A DNA stretch of 53,635 nt, from the UHGV virus genome UHGV-1680239; one strand, given 5' to 3'. The DNA comes from a virus. The translations under genes and the position numbers were made by a program. Under the pieces are notes generated by a model that was given only the letters and a program-made list of their open reading frames with translations, had not been told where the DNA came from and did no database searches. Below are positions 4,372 through 47,542 of the stretch, piece after piece. Numbering within the stretch: position 1 is the first letter of the stretch; every line of letters starts with the position of its first letter.

Positions 4372-5139
4372 TTATGCCGCGCTAACACTATGTTCAGTCC
4401 TAACCACCCCAACCTTCACAAAAGGGCTACCGTAGCTTGGTGGCTTCTTGATTAATTTGCCTACATACAGTTTTCTAATATGCTCATCGGCTATTCTGCC
4501 AACAAATTCATAACGTTTTGTGTCGGGGCCAAGAGCTATATCCCTTGTAAAGTACTGCTGAGAACCGGCTTTGACCCAGCATTCAATCTGATAAACTTCC
4601 ATTATCAGCCCACCATATGTAGCGTAGGCATATTTGAGATTCTCGTCTCTTGGAACCTTTGCCCATACGCCACGCGTAGCTTCATATAATGCCAGAGCGG
4701 ACATTCCTGACTTGTAGGTGCTGTTTAGCAGGAAGGCAAGACCGGCGTGCTCAGGAGCAATTTCAGTTTCCTCTTGCAGCACTAAGTGATGGTAGGCGTC
4801 CAGTGATATTCTGCCCATCATGGAACCACTTCCTCGAACCTTATTCGTAAGCTCTCCGACCCCCATAAGGTCGATGCATGTCGCCTCAACAAGTTTGGCT
4901 GTGGTTTCATCCATACCATGACGAAGAATATCTATGCCTAATTTTTTATTAGCCAAAAGTTCTTTGATCCGCATGGATTTGGGAGAGTCATCGGGATACT
5001 TGATGTGATCGAGACAACGAGTCGATTTGCCTTTTCCTATGTAAAACGGTCTTTTCATCTTGTCTTCTGTATCATAGAGACAGTAAACATAGTATTTAGC
5101 CTTATCCAATGATCTCGCGTATACCGATAAATCGTCCAT
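4372..5139 (-). CDS. GIY-YIG nuclease-domain protein with uncharacterised C-terminal domain
   Basis: N-terminal YYVYCLYD...RPFYIGKGKSTR matches the GIY-(10-11)-YIG motif with the downstream Arg; about 150 aa of unassigned C-terminus. Confidence 0.55.
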   Translation of the reverse strand: MDDLSVYARSLDKAKYYVYCLYDTEDKMKRPFYIGKGKSTRCLDHIKYPDDSPKSMRIKELLANKKLGIDILRHGMDETTAKLVEATCIDLMGVGELTNKVRGSGSMMGRISLDAYHHLVLQEETEIAPEHAGLAFLLNSTYKSGMSALALYEATRGVWAKVPRDENLKYAYATYGGLIMEVYQIECWVKAGSQQYFTRDIALGPDTKRYEFVGRIADEHIRKLYVGKLIKKPPSYGSPFVKVGVVRTEHSVSAA

Positions 5140-17757: not shown

Positions 17758-19866
17758 ATGTCTAAAAAACGTTCCATCAAAGAGGTTCAGGACTTCCGTG
17801 ACAGTGTAAAACGAGTAGTCGCTCTCCTTTCAGGTAAAAACATCCCTGTTGCAGAACGAGGGGACGACGCTTATGTACGCTATAACGATGATGGAGAGCC
17901 AATTCTCGTAAACATCCCATCAATCCCGGATAACGCAACACCGGCATTGATGAATGCTGTGCGCGGATTTCTCGATCATGAGGTTGCTCACATTTTGTTT
18001 ACCGATATTCGTGTGTCCAACAAAATGAGAGAAAAAGGACGCGTTCCTTCCTGGTCGCTATGGAATGCCTTAGAAGACGTGTTCATCGAGCGAAAAATGG
18101 GTCAGGTCTTTAACGGAACAAGACGTAATCTGATGGCAACTCAGCGCCTTATAATCGAAAAAGTCTTTAAACCAAAGGCTTCAGAGGCTATTGCTTATTG
18201 TGGCAAAGATCAGCGCGCGCTTTTTCTAAACTTCTTTCTCTGTCCGGTTGTAAGAGCCTGGGATGGCCAAGCACCGTTCGTAGATTTCATGGATGAATAT
18301 TGGCCTGTCATTGAGAAACCAATTTCATTATTAAAAGAACATGGTATCGATGTGGCCGTGCGTAACATGTCTTGCACCGAGGATTGTGTAAAGGTGGCTG
18401 CAACCATAGCTAAGATCCTCAAAGACACTGAAAGTGAAAGCAAAGGTAAGGAGTCAGCTCCGGGAAAAACTTCCGATCCTTCAGACGCTGACCAGACGGA
18501 TGCCTCTGGAGAAAATAATGAAGATAACGAAGATCATGAGACATCCTCAGCGTTAGATAATCACAAATCTATCAAACCAGAATCACACAGTAAGCACAAA
18601 CATGATAATAACGACAGTGATGATTCAGATAATTCTGAATCATCAGAGACAATATTCAATGATACAGAAAATGATAAAGAGGTATCAGATTCTGGTGCTT
18701 CTGATAACGCGGCGTCAGAATCATTTACCACTGACCACGAAAAAAGAAAATCGACAGAAGACGGCTCTTCAGACATACCAACTCCGTCAAAAATGAGTCT
18801 GGAAGAGGCTTTAGAGGAGTTGGATAGCATGGAAGATGAAGTCGGAGGCATGACAGAAGATGCGCTATCCGAAACGATTAAAAGCGAGTTAACAGAAAGC
18901 TCGAAAAGCGAATACAGGCCATACAATCGCTCATACGACTTCATCGGCTCGATTGATCAGGCAGAAGCCCATATCAAACGGCTTATTAAAACATTCTCCG
19001 ATATTGATTTAGGTGGATATCCAATCAGCCGTTATCGCATCGTTCCTGAAGGCAACCAACTCTTCGACAAATATATTGAAAAGCACCTTTCGTCAGGTGT
19101 TTCGTCGACGCTGGCAAAAGACCTGGAACGTGCAATAGCAAGCAGAAACAGAGTTCAGTTTATACCTGGCCAGCGTCGGGGGCGCATTCATGGTTCAAGT
19201 ATCTACAGATTAACAATGAATGATGATCGCGTGTTTCGTAAAAAAGAAGAATCTAAAGCCGTTAACGCCTGTGTTCAACAAGTGATTGATTTATCTGGTT
19301 CAATGAGTGGCGAAACGATAAAACTAGCTCTTGCAAGTGCATATACCATCGCCGATGCACTTGATCGAATAAATGTTCCCAACATTATCACCGGCTTCAC
19401 TACATTTGGCAGTCATATGGCAGCAGGAGAACTTAAGGCTATCAAATATGAGTTCTCTCGCTTTGAATCTTTAATGCTACCTATCATCAAAAATTGGAAT
19501 GAAAAAGCAAATTCTCGCGAAGTTCGCTCACGTATGGGGTGCGTAGGCTACACATTCCCACTTCTTAATAACGTGGATGGTGAAAGCATAGCCAGCCTTG
19601 CATCGTTATTTTCCGGTCGCATGGAGGACAGGAAGATCATGCTTGTTCTGAGCGATGGCGAGCCGTGGGCTGTTGGGAGAGGTTTTGACGCTCATTTGCG
19701 TTCGGTTGCGAAGCAAATTGAAACGCAGACTGACATTGATTTGATGGCAATTGGCATCATGACTGACGCACCGGAGAGATTTTACTCAAATCATGCCCTG
19801 GTAACGAGCGTTGATAGTCTTGGTTCATCTGTAGTTACTGAACTATCTCGTATCATTTTGAAGTAA
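17758..19866 (+). CDS. CobT-like von Willebrand factor A (vWA) domain protein with long acidic Ser/Asp/Glu-rich linker
   Basis: MIDAS motif DLSGSMSG in the C-terminal domain; low-complexity acidic region over about 18420-18900; followed by an AAA+ ATPase gene. Confidence 0.65.
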   Translation: MSKKRSIKEVQDFRDSVKRVVALLSGKNIPVAERGDDAYVRYNDDGEPILVNIPSIPDNATPALMNAVRGFLDHEVAHILFTDIRVSNKMREKGRVPSWSLWNALEDVFIERKMGQVFNGTRRNLMATQRLIIEKVFKPKASEAIAYCGKDQRALFLNFFLCPVVRAWDGQAPFVDFMDEYWPVIEKPISLLKEHGIDVAVRNMSCTEDCVKVAATIAKILKDTESESKGKESAPGKTSDPSDADQTDASGENNEDNEDHETSSALDNHKSIKPESHSKHKHDNNDSDDSDNSESSETIFNDTENDKEVSDSGASDNAASESFTTDHEKRKSTEDGSSDIPTPSKMSLEEALEELDSMEDEVGGMTEDALSETIKSELTESSKSEYRPYNRSYDFIGSIDQAEAHIKRLIKTFSDIDLGGYPISRYRIVPEGNQLFDKYIEKHLSSGVSSTLAKDLERAIASRNRVQFIPGQRRGRIHGSSIYRLTMNDDRVFRKKEESKAVNACVQQVIDLSGSMSGETIKLALASAYTIADALDRINVPNIITGFTTFGSHMAAGELKAIKYEFSRFESLMLPIIKNWNEKANSREVRSRMGCVGYTFPLLNNVDGESIASLASLFSGRMEDRKIMLVLSDGEPWAVGRGFDAHLRSVAKQIETQTDIDLMAIGIMTDAPERFYSNHALVTSVDSLGSSVVTELSRIILK

Positions 19867-19961
19867 TTAAAACAGCCTTAATGATAAGTAACTACTTACC
19901 ATAGTTAATGGTATATTTATATAAGAACTTGAACGCTCATTAGAGAACAAAGGAAAAGCGC

Positions 19962-21197
19962 ATGACTACTACTGCACTGCAAAATGATAAAAATCCTTCT
20001 GATTACCTTGTTTGCAAGTGGTGCGGCAAATCATTTCACTATTTTAAGTCCCATGTAGCCAATGGTAATTGCGAGGGCATTCCTGAGTCAGTAAAAGATG
20101 CCGATCCTGACACCGTACTGAAAATGTACACAACGCAGTTTCCAGATGAGCCAACGCTATCGAAAAAGGCACTTGATGCAATTCAAGCTAAACGTGCCGA
20201 GCAAAAAAGCGAAATGGCCAAATCTTCTGGCTTGACCAGTAACCCTGGCTACACAGGCACAGTTGAGTACAAGACAGATCTGGTCGCAGCTCACGAACTG
20301 CTAAACGTAACGGTGGAAGAACTCGGAACAAAACGTGGGACGCCGCTCATGGTTAGCGTCAACGTCAATACGCCGTATCCAGAGTTCGTTCCCGAAGTGA
20401 AGAAAGGCTACGTATATGGCGACTTCGAACTGATCAAAGATATTTTCATGATGCTTGAACTTGGCATACCTGGCTATTTGTGGGGTCATGCAGGAACAGG
20501 CAAATCGTCATTGCCTACACAGCTATGTGCTTTGCTCAATCGTCCGTTGATCCGTGCCCAACATACAGCATCAATGGAAGAGGCACATGTTACGGGGCAA
20601 ATTCTGGCGCGTGATGGCTCTACGTATTTCGAACCTGGCTTGCTTGCGCTCGCAATGAAGCATGGCTGGGTTTACCTCGCGGATGAATACGACTTTGCGT
20701 TTCCACAAATTCTTGGCGTGTATCAGCCAGTGCTGGAAGGTGAGGCGTTGGTCATCAAAGAGGCAACTCCAGAATGGCGTCGCATTACTCCGCATGAACG
20801 GTTTGCTTTCATTGGCACTGGCAACACAAACGGTTCTGGTGATGAAACCGGCTTGTACCAGGGTACAAACATCCAGAACGCCGCGAACTTTTCGCGTTTT
20901 GGCATCGTTTCAAATGTGAAATACATGAGCAAAGAGGCAGAGATCAACATGTTGATAAATGCCGGCATCGTGGATGAATACGCTGAAAAGATGGTTAAGT
21001 TTGCCGGTATCGTTCGCGATGGTTACGAAGAACACAACATCAGCCAACCGATTGGGCCTCGTGAGCTTTTGTTGTCGGCCAAGATTGGAATGATGCGAGG
21101 CGACTTTGTGACAGGTATTGAGCGTTCTTTCATTAACAAACTCCCTTCAGCTTCTGCACAAGCAGCTCGTGAAGTTGTTCAAAAAATATTTGGTTAA
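19962..21197 (+). CDS. CobS/MoxR-like AAA+ ATPase with N-terminal Cys-rich extension
   Basis: Walker A GHAGTGKSS, Walker B-like WVYLADEYD; partner of the upstream vWA protein. Confidence 0.7.
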   Translation: MTTTALQNDKNPSDYLVCKWCGKSFHYFKSHVANGNCEGIPESVKDADPDTVLKMYTTQFPDEPTLSKKALDAIQAKRAEQKSEMAKSSGLTSNPGYTGTVEYKTDLVAAHELLNVTVEELGTKRGTPLMVSVNVNTPYPEFVPEVKKGYVYGDFELIKDIFMMLELGIPGYLWGHAGTGKSSLPTQLCALLNRPLIRAQHTASMEEAHVTGQILARDGSTYFEPGLLALAMKHGWVYLADEYDFAFPQILGVYQPVLEGEALVIKEATPEWRRITPHERFAFIGTGNTNGSGDETGLYQGTNIQNAANFSRFGIVSNVKYMSKEAEINMLINAGIVDEYAEKMVKFAGIVRDGYEEHNISQPIGPRELLLSAKIGMMRGDFVTGIERSFINKLPSASAQAAREVVQKIFG

Positions 21198-28880: not shown

Positions 28881-31220
28881 ATGGCAAAAGGAAAATCCGC
28901 ACTGGCACTTGCTCTGAAAAAGAAAATCGGTAGCAACGACGAAATTCAGAAAGTAACTCATTGGATTGACACAGGCTTTCCTCCGTTAAACAAAGCTATT
29001 TCCGGTCGTTACGATGGCGGTTTCCCATGTGGTCGTATCGTCGAAGTATTCGGGCCGCCAAGCGCGGGGAAATGTGTTACCGCAGACACCATGCTGCTGA
29101 CGGAGCGTGGAATGGTAACAGTGAAAGAGTTGTTTGAGATTGAAGGGTACAAAGCGACATGCACTACTCGCGATGTAGAGCATAACGTTGGACTCATCAA
29201 TGAAAATGGCGTGATAGAGAAGACCTCACACCTGACATGGAACAACCGTCGCAAATTCAAGCGTATTAAGCTGGCATCAGGCGGTTATATCGAGGCTACG
29301 TTCCGTCACCCAATCCGTGTGGTTGACGACTTAGGTAATGTCGTCTGGCGACATGCTGAAAAAATCAGTGTAGGCGACACGATTCCTTCAATGGTTGGCA
29401 CACATCAATTCGGCGATCAGCACCTGGATGCCAATATCGCAAAACTGATGGGCTATTTAATTGCTGACGGATACGTGGCCTCTGAAAATTCAGTGAATTT
29501 TTCTAACACAGATCCTTTCATCAAGGATGAGTACTACCGCCTCATTTCGCTGGTATCAGACAAGATGCCAGTTACGAGAAAACATAACGGCTCGGAAGAC
29601 CATGTGCTGTTTAGCAAAGAGGTGCGTTCGCTGCTTTTTAAAGAATATGGTCTGGAGTATGAGAAAGCTGCTGGCAAGCAGGTTCCGTTGAGTGTGCGTC
29701 GCGCCAATAGCGAGGCTCAAATTGCATTCCTTCGCGGCTACTTTGAGCTGGAATGCCACGTCAATGATGGTCGCTGCATTGAGGTTGTGAGCGCGAGTGG
29801 GCTGCTGCTACAGCAAATTCGCCTCATGCTCCTGAATCTGGGGATTACGTCAACTGTCTCTGAAAAACACGTCGCGGGTTATGAAAATACATATTACCGG
29901 CTGTCATTCAGTGGCTCTAATTACGACCTTTTTCTGTCAACGATTGGTTTCGAATCTCCGGCACGTTTATCAGTGGCAACCAAACGGGACATTGGTTTTG
30001 ACCGCACTTACTCAGGCTATGTTCCGCACATCAGCGGCTTAGTGAAATCACTCTACGAGTCGCTCACCAAGACCACCCGTGAAGACTACGCTCTGGTAGA
30101 CCACGTTATTGGCCGCGGCGATCGTGTCGGAATAGACAAACTGCGAGAAATCTATGTCTCCTTCATTGGCAGAAAGAATCGTTTTAACGAGCATCTGTTT
30201 GCAGAACTGGCAGCGGTAATTGGCTCTAACTTGTTCTACGACGAAGTCGTGGCTATTGAGGAAGGTGAAGCACCAACGTTCGACGTAGCGATGCCGGAAA
30301 CACACTCTTTCTGGTCTAACGGGATTATCAGCCACAACACATTCCTTGCAACAGCAGCAATGATCTCCGCACAGAAACAAGATGGTCTGGCGGTATTCCT
30401 CGATCATGAGAACAGTTTTGACGTTGGCCTGGCTGTAGCCAATGGCCTGAACGCAGATGAGGATGACGGTCAGTGGGTATACAAGCAGCCAGATACCTTC
30501 GAAGACTCTGTAGAGTTGATCGGCACAATACTTAAATTGGTTCGTGATGAAGAGCTTATCCCCGAATCAGCACCTATCTGTATCGTGGCTGACTCTCTTG
30601 CGTCTATGGTTCCGAACTCCAAAGCCGAGAAGTTCGAAAAGATGGCTGAAGGCACTGCCAAAGACAAAGATCAGCTAAACATGAACGACAATACGGCACT
30701 GGCTCGTGCGACGAGTGCGAACTTCCCTACTCTGGCTTTGTGGGCACGCAAATACAACGCCTGCATCATCTTCTTGAATCAGGTTCGCACAAAAATCGGT
30801 GTAATGTTTGGCGACCCTACTACGTCGCCAGGTGGAGATTCACCGAAGTTCTACGCTTCTGTACGTATCCGTCTTGGTGCATCGGTGATGAAGGATGGTA
30901 AAGAGAAGATCGGCCAGGACGTAGGCGCAGAATGCATCAAAAACAAAGTTGCACCACCGTATGGCAAATGCACCTGGAAATTCTACTTCGATCCTACTCG
31001 TGGCCTCGACGTTATCGAATCGCTCGTCGAGTACATGCTGGAAGAAGGATACCTGCCAAAGAACGCCAGCGGGCGAGTTGAAATTGGTGACAAGAAATAC
31101 ACCAAATCGCAGATCGTCGAGATGTATCGGGAGAAGCCACTGGCTGAAATCATTGCGGCTTTGCAGGCAATCGACGACCGAAGAGCAAAAGACAACCCCA
31201 CCGAGTCAGTAGAAGAGTAA
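28881..31220 (+). CDS. RecA/UvsX-like recombinase precursor interrupted by an intein
   Basis: Exteins join as GPPSAGK|TFLATAA...; RecA-like FLNQVRTKIGVMFGDPTTSPGGDSPKFYASVRIRLG; 779 aa total, about 357 aa without the intein. Confidence 0.8.
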   Translation: MAKGKSALALALKKKIGSNDEIQKVTHWIDTGFPPLNKAISGRYDGGFPCGRIVEVFGPPSAGKCVTADTMLLTERGMVTVKELFEIEGYKATCTTRDVEHNVGLINENGVIEKTSHLTWNNRRKFKRIKLASGGYIEATFRHPIRVVDDLGNVVWRHAEKISVGDTIPSMVGTHQFGDQHLDANIAKLMGYLIADGYVASENSVNFSNTDPFIKDEYYRLISLVSDKMPVTRKHNGSEDHVLFSKEVRSLLFKEYGLEYEKAAGKQVPLSVRRANSEAQIAFLRGYFELECHVNDGRCIEVVSASGLLLQQIRLMLLNLGITSTVSEKHVAGYENTYYRLSFSGSNYDLFLSTIGFESPARLSVATKRDIGFDRTYSGYVPHISGLVKSLYESLTKTTREDYALVDHVIGRGDRVGIDKLREIYVSFIGRKNRFNEHLFAELAAVIGSNLFYDEVVAIEEGEAPTFDVAMPETHSFWSNGIISHNTFLATAAMISAQKQDGLAVFLDHENSFDVGLAVANGLNADEDDGQWVYKQPDTFEDSVELIGTILKLVRDEELIPESAPICIVADSLASMVPNSKAEKFEKMAEGTAKDKDQLNMNDNTALARATSANFPTLALWARKYNACIIFLNQVRTKIGVMFGDPTTSPGGDSPKFYASVRIRLGASVMKDGKEKIGQDVGAECIKNKVAPPYGKCTWKFYFDPTRGLDVIESLVEYMLEEGYLPKNASGRVEIGDKKYTKSQIVEMYREKPLAEIIAALQAIDDRRAKDNPTESVEE
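29073..30338 (+). mobile_element. intein (422 aa) with LAGLIDADG homing-endonuclease domain, inserted in the P-loop
   Basis: Begins with Cys after GPPSAGK, ends ...IISHN followed by Thr; LAGLIDADG-like blocks KLMGYLIADGY and FLRGYFELECHV. Confidence 0.75.
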
Positions 31221-46438: not shown

Positions 46439-47542
46439 GTGTCACTACTTTTGAATCGAGAGCATACGAACGGTCAGGTAACAAACGCATCGTATGCAAA
46501 AGTTATTGAGACGGTGCTTAAAAGCGGCGTGCAGGCTGATGATCGCACAGGCACTGGTACTTTAAGCACCTGCTACGTTCCCTCTTATTACATGCTTACT
46601 GGTGGGACTGTGCCGCTTATTTCTGGAAAGGCGGTAAATCTTAAGCCACTGCTTGTCGAACTTGAGTGGTATCTGAAAGGCACGGGCAACATCCAATTTC
46701 TCAAGGATAACGGCGTTAAGATTTGGGATGCATGGGCCGATGAGAATGGCGATTTGGGGCCGGTTTACGGTAAGCAGTGGCGTCGATGGGAAGATACCCG
46801 CATCGTGAGCCATAGTGAATATCTGAGCAAGATCGCTACTTTCCGTGAACGCGGGTACAAAGTCGAGGGATACCTGGGTATCAGTGAAGATCGCGTAGTG
46901 CTGTCCCGTGAAATCGATCAGCTACAGCGTATTGTCGATACACTGCGCACGAACCCTACCGATCGTCGCATCATGCTTAACGCATGGAACGTAGGCGAGC
47001 TTGAGGATATGAAACTGCCACCTTGCCACTTTGTCTTCTCTTTGTGGAGTCGTGAGCTGGATTTTGAAACCCGTTTAACGATGGCAACTGACATTGGTCT
47101 TCAACACAGTCGCCTCGGTTACGAGTCTATCTACACCAAGATGCTATACGATCTGGAGGTGGACGGCAGTGTTACTGAAGCTGAACTGGATGAACTTGGA
47201 ATCCCCAAACGCATCCTCAACTCCTGCCTCGTACAGCGTAGCGTAGACACTTTTGTTGGTATGCCATTCAATATTGCTGGCTATGGCATTCTCACTCATT
47301 TTCTCGCGAAGATTACGGGTCACATGGCCGGTGCATTTGTGCATTTTGGCTTTGACGTGCATTTGTACAACAACCACATGGAAGGTGTGTGTGAGCTAAT
47401 GAAACGACAGGCTCCAGAGCATTCAGATCCGGTCGTTATTTTCCCTCATGAATGGTCAGAGTTGGATGATTTCAAATGGGACGAGGTTTTAATTCTTGGC
47501 TATGACCCTCTATCGTGGATCAAGGTTCCAGTGGCGGTGTGA
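46439..47542 (+). CDS. thyA: thymidylate synthase (ThyA-type) with internal insertions
   Basis: DRTGTGTLS, RRIMLNAWN, PPCHFVF and C-terminal ...KVPVAV blocks; 367 aa versus about 264-290 typical; GTG start. Confidence 0.85.
   Translation: MSLLLNREHTNGQVTNASYAKVIETVLKSGVQADDRTGTGTLSTCYVPSYYMLTGGTVPLISGKAVNLKPLLVELEWYLKGTGNIQFLKDNGVKIWDAWADENGDLGPVYGKQWRRWEDTRIVSHSEYLSKIATFRERGYKVEGYLGISEDRVVLSREIDQLQRIVDTLRTNPTDRRIMLNAWNVGELEDMKLPPCHFVFSLWSRELDFETRLTMATDIGLQHSRLGYESIYTKMLYDLEVDGSVTEAELDELGIPKRILNSCLVQRSVDTFVGMPFNIAGYGILTHFLAKITGHMAGAFVHFGFDVHLYNNHMEGVCELMKRQAPEHSDPVVIFPHEWSELDDFKWDEVLILGYDPLSWIKVPVAV

Follow-up and report, generated by a model that had tools for sequence, protein, structure and literature searches.

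An interrupted Walker A motif in a RecA family gene

A RecA family gene in the virus genome UHGV-1680239, a stretch of 53,635 nucleotides (nt) that is referred to here as the window, raises the question of what separates the invariant lysine and threonine of its Walker A motif, and of whether a recombinase could still be produced from it. The precursor open reading frame (ORF; 28881..31220, + strand) encodes 779 residues (~86.5 kDa), and PHROG 9666, the 779-position family of this precursor, matches it from end to end (1-779/779). The N-extein (28881..29072, +; residues 1-64) terminates in the Walker A residues GPPSAGK (residues 58-64; 29052..29072). It is followed by an insert of 422 residues and 47.5 kDa (29073..30338, +; precursor residues 65-486), the RecA-c2 allele of an intein, which begins with Cys65 from position 29073 and ends in Ser-His-Asn at position 30338 (Asn486). 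The C-extein (30339..31220, +; stop codon included) opens with TFLATAAM, its first residue, Thr+1, being encoded at 30339..30341. A preliminary description of this DNA had placed an insert of 422 residues, running from Cys to His-Asn, at 29073-30338 of the 779-residue ORF between GPPSAGK and TFLATAA, and these coordinates are exact on translation. We consider it probable, at about 0.88, that the insert is a mobile class 1 intein with a LAGLIDADG homing endonuclease, situated between Lys64 and Thr65 in the Walker A motif of the recombinase of an SSU5-like phage-plasmid.

Removal of the insert in silico yields a protein of 357 residues and 39.0 kDa with a canonical GPPSAGKT Walker A motif, as the preliminary description had foreseen, and its estimates of ~39 and ~47 kDa for the two products agree with the computed 39.0 kDa (spliced) and 47.5 kDa (intein). 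The recA gene of phage CMS-2020a (CP053388) has ~98% DNA identity to that of the window and is without exactly nt 29073..30338, the breakpoints falling at 29072/29073 and 30338/30339 (a stroke marks a junction here and below). The intein-free RecA of this phage (357 residues) shares 100% protein identity with the predicted ligated exteins, and the RecA of SSU5 is also collinear with the spliced extein. A comparison with intein-free homologues at the insertion site had been proposed earlier; homologues of this kind were found and coincide exactly with the deletion product, and the idea of a fixed domain other than an intein is not borne out. The GC content of the insert (0.46-0.50) equals that of its flanks, and the base composition carries no signal of foreign origin. 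Antisense ORFs within the intein, for example 30048..30407 (-) of 119 residues, are without support and were rejected as spurious.

Profiles, splice residues and fold of the insert

Three curated models recognise the insert above their cut-offs, which speaks against a chance pattern. The Pfam family Intein_splicing (PF14890) scores 46.4 bits on it (gathering cut-off 35.8), the NCBIfam model intein_Nterm (TIGR01445) scores 35.4 (cut-off 24.5) and covers residues 1-83 of the intein, and intein_Cterm (TIGR01443) scores 17.0 (cut-off 15.6).

The residues expected of a class 1 intein have all been identified by alignment with relatives inserted at the same site, namely Cys1, T76 and H79, D404, H421 and N422, and Thr+1, and the earlier identification of the insert as an intein is upheld with blocks A, B, F and G all found. 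Block A comprises the N-terminal splice nucleophile Cys1 (codon at 29073..29075, +), which is kept in every relative covering the N-terminal junction. The TxxH motif of block B, T76-F-R-H79 (29298..29309, +), has its threonine and histidine kept in every relative covering the region. Blocks F and G together read TFDVAMPETHSFWSNGIISHN (30276..30338, +) and include Asp404, His421 and Asn422; this region, to which the TIGR01443 match belongs, is the best-conserved stretch among the relatives. The residue following His421-Asn422 is Thr+1, which is predicted to serve both as the Walker A threonine and as the second splice nucleophile.

An AlphaFold2 model of the intein was obtained with a mean predicted local confidence (pLDDT) of 82.8 and a predicted template modelling score (pTM) of 0.86. 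The top matches among PDB structures in a Foldseek search are endonuclease-bearing inteins, TliVMA (7qss; E-value 3e-19, TM-score 0.68), PI-PfuI, PI-PkoII and PI-SceI, and those ranked lower are mini-inteins and the autoprocessing HINT domains of Hedgehog proteins. Because the curated profiles, the empty site, the splice residues, the endonuclease motifs described below and the modelled fold agree as five independent lines, the assignment of the insert as a class 1 intein of HINT fold, lodged between the invariant lysine and threonine of Walker A, is supported.

The nested endonuclease domain

An endonuclease domain with a helical accessory region (~residues 115-385 of the intein; 29415..30227, +) is nested in the HINT fold, as judged from the secondary structure of the AlphaFold2 model and from whole-length Foldseek matches to 7qss, 1dq3 and 2cw7. 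The Pfam family LAGLIDADG_3 (PF14528) spans residues 215-292 of the intein with a score of 63.9 (gathering cut-off 22.5). The two LAGLIDADG-like blocks noticed earlier have both been located, each with a putative catalytic acid, as in the monomeric two-motif class of LAGLIDADG homing endonucleases. Motif 1, LMGYLIADG (residues 125-133; 29445..29471, +), includes Asp132 (29466..29468) and aligns with the first motif of TliVMA and PI-PkoII, and motif 2, FLRGYFELEC (residues 219-228; 29727..29756, +), includes Glu227 (29751..29753) and aligns with the GDG of PI-PkoII. Both acids, D132 and E227, are thereby paired with catalytic acids of TliVMA and PI-PkoII. In the model D132 closes helix 120-132 and E227 closes helix 213-227, each at the C-terminal end. 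The ratio of non-synonymous to synonymous substitution rates (dN/dS) between intein copies is 0.1-0.2, the LAGLIDADG core included, and this low ratio points to selection for a working endonuclease.

Relationship to known inteins

RadA and RecA inteins were surveyed by Topilina, Novikova, Stanger, Banavali & Belfort 2015 (Nucleic Acids Research, NAR 43:6631; PMC4513877), in whose scheme the P-loop is insertion point c. Table 1 of that paper has an entry 'c2 (65-486)' for Enterobacter cloacae, Enterobacter sp., eight E. coli strains and Salmonella enterica. One of the strains in the survey, E. coli MS 145-7, carries on plasmid NZ_CP146657.1 a gene that is 99.6% identical over 100% of the ORF. 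Since the residue numbers 65-486 are identical and the gene of a listed strain is 99.6% identical, the intein of the window is the same element as RecA-c2 and is already known. The survey presents no splicing, homing or population analysis of RecA-c2 and leaves phage, prophage and horizontal transfer unmentioned, whereas in the current analysis the gene is tied to phage-plasmids. The residence on phage-plasmids only, the intein polymorphism and the homing signature reported here are modest additions and establish no new biology. The published label of a 'first E. coli intein in RecA' is better understood as referring to the intein of a phage-plasmid recombinase.

A later paper characterising the RecA-c2 intein was not found, the literature on SSU5 and phage-plasmids included, and a 2021 review of inteins in pathogens makes no mention of the host genera. 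RefSeq and other public records name the gene inconsistently as 'LAGLIDADG family homing endonuclease', 'hint domain-containing protein', 'recombinase RecA', 'RecA', 'intein-containing recombinase RecA' or 'hypothetical protein', a practice that conceals a functional recombinase.

The intein of Pyrococcus horikoshii RadA (site c1; PDB 4e2t, 2lqm) shares with RecA-c2 the position between the P-loop lysine and Thr+1 as well as the HINT fold, but it is a mini-intein without an endonuclease. A shared lineage of the two was considered and rejected, the sequence similarity being marginal (E-values of 0.1-0.14) with no significant stretch. This marginal similarity agrees with the independent invasion of the P-loop site proposed in PMC4513877. 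The RecA inteins of M. tuberculosis (PI-MtuI, site a) and M. leprae (site b) are likewise LAGLIDADG inteins in RecA, but they occupy sites 252-691 and ~205-211 at the monomer-monomer interface instead of the P-loop. The model NF007072, 'intein-containing recombinase RecA', which describes the mycobacterial site-a protein, was also rejected, with scores of 99.9-101.7 and a cut-off of 1024.

The closest structures and profiles are those of TliVMA (7qss), PI-PfuI (1dq3) and PI-PkoII (2cw7), in which a two-motif LAGLIDADG domain is nested in the HINT fold. The models of P-loop inteins in the archaeal RFC small subunit (NF003157 and NF003159) are also among the closest; the RFC and IF2 matches begin at the first residues of the intein, and on the full protein the RFC match begins at residue 57, within GPPSAGK. 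These archaeal endonuclease-bearing inteins differ from RecA-c2 in that their identity to it is 15-21% and that they reside in other host proteins and in another domain of life. The TerL1-a intein of mycobacteriophages (Kelley et al. 2016, PMC5050341) resembles it in being inserted between the Walker A lysine and a nucleophilic threonine of a phage-borne ATPase, and differs in host protein and phage group. A terminase family, phrog_17415, matches the N-terminal HINT region of the intein.

Distribution and polymorphism

The recA gene was found in 250 of 5,426 complete E. coli genomes, at 252 places that are all on plasmids (0 chromosomal); the host gene resides on SSU5-like phage-plasmids and phages only and never on the chromosome. 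The gene contains the full-length intein in 114 of these 250 genomes, and the same is true of 237 of the 721 PLSDB plasmids with a related recA, that is about a third. When plasmids with any intein match are counted against those with a recA match, the figures are 123/229 for Escherichia, 71/254 for Klebsiella, 41/91 for Enterobacter, 6/21 for Citrobacter, 1/42 for Salmonella and 0/63 for Yersinia. Across Escherichia, Klebsiella and Enterobacter 28-54% of related plasmids carry the intein, an intermediate frequency, and it is nearly absent in the relatives from Salmonella and Yersinia. The empty site of the CMS-2020a type has an exact match in at least 63 plasmids.

Two E. coli plasmid matches, H169 (NZ_CP075717) and H170 (CP057895), retain just the final 46% or 19% of the intein, and may be deletion remnants of an intein-containing gene.

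Indirect signs of homing

Comparisons at the level of the locus were made for ~10 of the 721 PLSDB loci. The intein DNA of the window is 96.7-96.8% identical to that of a Klebsiella plasmid (L006) and an Enterobacter plasmid (L007), and outside the intein the identity of the same loci is 80-85% in the N-extein, 82-85% in the C-extein and 72-83% in the upstream genes. Between the Klebsiella and Enterobacter inteins only 2 of 1266 nt differ (99.84% identity), with exteins that are 84-85% identical.

The junctions carry a synonymous signature, GCG GGG AAA at 29064..29072 (+) with ACA at 30339..30341, and GCG GGG AAA/intein/ACA is common to all intein-plus alleles examined. Intein-minus junctions read GCA GGG AAA/ACG in CMS-2020a, GCT GGT AAA/ACC in a Klebsiella phage and GCC GGT AAA/ACC in SSU5. 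The corresponding empty-site sequences, given before and after the junction, are GCAGGGAAA and ACGTTCCTT for the CMS-2020a type, GCTGGTAAA and ACCTTCCTG for the Klebsiella type, and GCCGGTAAA and ACCTTTTTG for the SSU5 type. Beyond the junction signature, intein-plus and intein-minus alleles of Klebsiella are identical over 96 nt on each side. In Escherichia phage PhiR41_1 the upstream sequence is of the CMS-2020a type until 7 nt from the junction, which suggests the invasion of an allele of this type, with co-conversion over a very short tract. An intein-free allele with the fused intein-plus signature, as expected of a precise loss or of the ancestral target, was not found in PLSDB, the best full-length match being 93.3%. 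Taken as a population signature, these patterns of identity are indirect signs of homing and of a recent horizontal spread of the intein.

Two plasmids carry disrupted copies of the gene. The 62-kb plasmid p3RM15115 of E. albertii (L008; CP043243) has an intact divergent intein (93.8% nucleotide identity, synonymous divergence dS ~0.22) in a backbone that is 98-99% identical to the window, the reverse of what is seen in the Klebsiella and Enterobacter copies. Its recA C-extein also contains an insertion of 1162 bp (L008:5577-6738), in which no coding sequence is annotated; the overlap, at gene nt 1769-1771, is 3 bp. On E. coli plasmid CP059946 the intein itself is broken by an insertion of 771 bp (L009:1932-2702) with an 8-bp duplication (gene nt 616-623), which resembles an insertion sequence in its size and duplication.

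Proposed mechanism and alternative explanations

By analogy with known inteins, both splicing and DNA cleavage would be expected of the element. The 86.5-kDa precursor would be unable to form a P-loop, and as the intein separates the Walker A residues Lys64 and Thr65 it should not bind ATP until spliced, so that splicing would be a requirement for ATP binding. An N-S acyl shift at Cys1 would produce a thioester to be attacked by Thr+1, Asn422 would then cyclise with the assistance of His421, and an O-N shift would join GPPSAGK to T, the products being the 39-kDa recombinase and a 47.5-kDa endonuclease. In a cell where replicons with and without the intein come together, the endonuclease would cut the uninterrupted P-loop coding sequence, and repair of the break from the intein-plus copy would convert the allele.

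Several points weigh against this reading. An experimental study of the enterobacterial RecA-c2 intein was not found in the searchable literature. Slow or conditional splicing is possible in inteins with Thr+1. Motif 2 reads ELEC, the canonical GDG being absent, and the activity of the second catalytic site is presumed. Intein-minus alleles persist in about half of the E. coli replicons, which could reflect rare homing or cleavage-resistant sites. The identity across backbones could in principle be due to ordinary recombination of a gene segment, although the identity breakpoints are within ~7-20 nt of the intein ends.

The non-canonical ELEC is also the starting point for an alternative in which the intein is competent in splicing but has an endonuclease of little or no activity, the element being inherited passively and spread by the ordinary recombination of phage-plasmids. 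Such a state would fit with intein-minus alleles being common, as exemplified by the many exact empty sites of the CMS-2020a type, and has precedents in same-site relatives (P0007, P0012 and P0013) whose endonuclease domains are degenerate or lost. We regard it as unlikely, since the low dN/dS extends across the LAGLIDADG core, both D132 and E227 are kept, and identity falls from 97-99.8% to 80-85% within a few nt of both intein ends, as endonuclease-driven conversion yields. The view that the insert is a fixed domain that does not splice, or that the gene is a pseudogene broken by a mobile element, finds an echo in the RefSeq practice of often labelling the whole ORF as 'LAGLIDADG family homing endonuclease' or 'hint domain-containing protein', and some copies are truly disrupted (L008 and L009). 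It is very hard to reconcile with an intact frame in which every splice residue is present, with an extein protein identical to that of intein-free alleles, which argues against relaxed selection, and with the lack of the intein in most relatives, which shows that it is not fixed; its probability is accordingly negligible.

The intein could also have been co-opted as a conditional switch, with an environmental or life-cycle signal gating splicing and recombinase activity, as has been proposed for the P-loop intein of Pyrococcus RadA. Inteins with Thr+1 are often slow or conditional splicers. The position between lysine and threonine of the P-loop is the same as in P. horikoshii RadA, and an ATP-sparing regulation has been suggested by Topilina et al. 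for P-loop inteins (PMC4513877). On steric grounds the same authors consider an intein-extein orientation of the P. horikoshii RadA type unfeasible in the E. coli precursor (PMC4513877), and the intein is dispensable, since between about half and two thirds of the replicons have identical exteins that function without it; a switch of this kind is therefore improbable. A mobile class 1 intein with a homing endonuclease remains our preferred reading. A rather speculative extension of it is that the endonuclease serves as a weapon between competing, mutually incompatible SSU5-like phage-plasmids, its target at superinfection being the recombinase gene of a rival that lacks the intein, and/or that slow Thr+1 splicing gates the recombinase between plasmid maintenance and lytic replication. 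If true, either role would provide a selective reason for the intermediate frequency of the intein and for its near absence in Salmonella and Yersinia.

The RecA-c2 system represents a 'classic' P-loop intein in tractable hosts, the phage-plasmids of E. coli and Klebsiella, with natural plus and minus alleles that share identical exteins. Homing, co-conversion and conditional splicing of an intein could conveniently be measured in it in vivo. Its main value lies in this experimental tractability, the practical consequences being modest.

The host recombinase and its replicon

The spliced form is recognised by the Pfam family RecA (E-value 2e-42, above the gathering score) and matches phrog_97, 'UvsX-like recombinase'. 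In structure comparisons the extein is closer to bacterial RecA (E-values of ~1e-31 to 1e-35) than to UvsX (E-value 2e-9). The bacterial RecA equivalog model TIGR02012 gives 153.7 bits to the spliced extein, below the cut-off of 325.3, and on this score the extein is a divergent RecA-family paralogue. The earlier designation as a RecA/UvsX-like recombinase therefore holds for the RecA family, with the refinement that the protein is nearer to bacterial RecA than to UvsX and falls below the equivalog level. When the spliced extein is aligned with E. coli RecA, GRIVEVFGPPSAGKTFL of the extein corresponds to GRIVEIYGPESSGKTTL of E. coli RecA, and GPPSAGK pairs with GPESSGK.

An SSU5-like phage-plasmid of Enterobacteriaceae is the replicon to which the window belongs, the window being its module for replication and recombination, with 98% identity to the intein-plus Escherichia phages PhiR41_1 and Cyrano. 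The module encodes a DnaB-like helicase, a primase, a ligase, an integrase, a pair of CobT/VWA and AAA_5 proteins and the Pol III alpha subunit, together with a gp32-like single-stranded DNA binding protein, a 5'-3' exonuclease, RecA, a Band-7 protein, a Rep3 initiator, SbcCD-like proteins, NrdAB and ThyA. A second intein was sought in the DnaB-like helicase, primase, ligase, Pol III alpha, NrdA, NrdB, ThyA and SbcCD-like proteins of the window, and only the expected domains were found.

The thymidylate synthase ORF (46439..47542, +) is 367 residues long and matches the 266-position Pfam model in two stretches, with residues 18-204 corresponding to model positions 2-154. Extra sequence seems to be present in it, in which no intein or endonuclease domain was detected. 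An ORF of 255 residues with a LEM-3-like GIY-YIG nuclease domain (4372..5139, -) is situated on the strand opposite to the adjacent replication genes and may be a free-standing homing endonuclease. The CobT-like VWA protein (702 residues) and the AAA_5 ATPase of CobS/MoxR type (411 residues) are encoded at 17758..21197 (+), directly upstream of Pol III alpha, and this pair is also kept in the distant relative L012 described below.

Same-site inteins in more distant proteins

More distant inteins with 28-45% identity have been identified at the same K/C...HN/T site in other RecA proteins (L011, L012 and L013). In L011, a bacterial contig of 550 kb, the endonuclease of the intein is degenerate, and the intein of L013 is found in a phage-like context.

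The metagenome contig ERZ27257820 k141_7541 (L012:9380-9560) represents a distant SSU5-like relative whose intein, inserted in the P-loop at the same site, is 44% identical. Its synteny with the window comprises CobT, AAA_5, Pol III alpha, gp32, the exonuclease and RecA. An in-frame TGA is present at the conserved tryptophan of block F (PETHSF, TGA, then SNGFISHN/TAMATK), and the gene is called as two ORFs. A nonsense mutation or a sequencing error could account for the TGA, or the codon may be read as tryptophan.

A metagenomic RuvB of 542 residues (P0014) contains a mini-intein at the equivalent position of Walker A (GPPGLGK/CVTADT...FCNHN/TTLG). Its HINT blocks resemble those of the RecA-c2 intein (32% identity over 25% of the query), a likeness that is compatible with the movement of related inteins between the P-loops of different ATPases.

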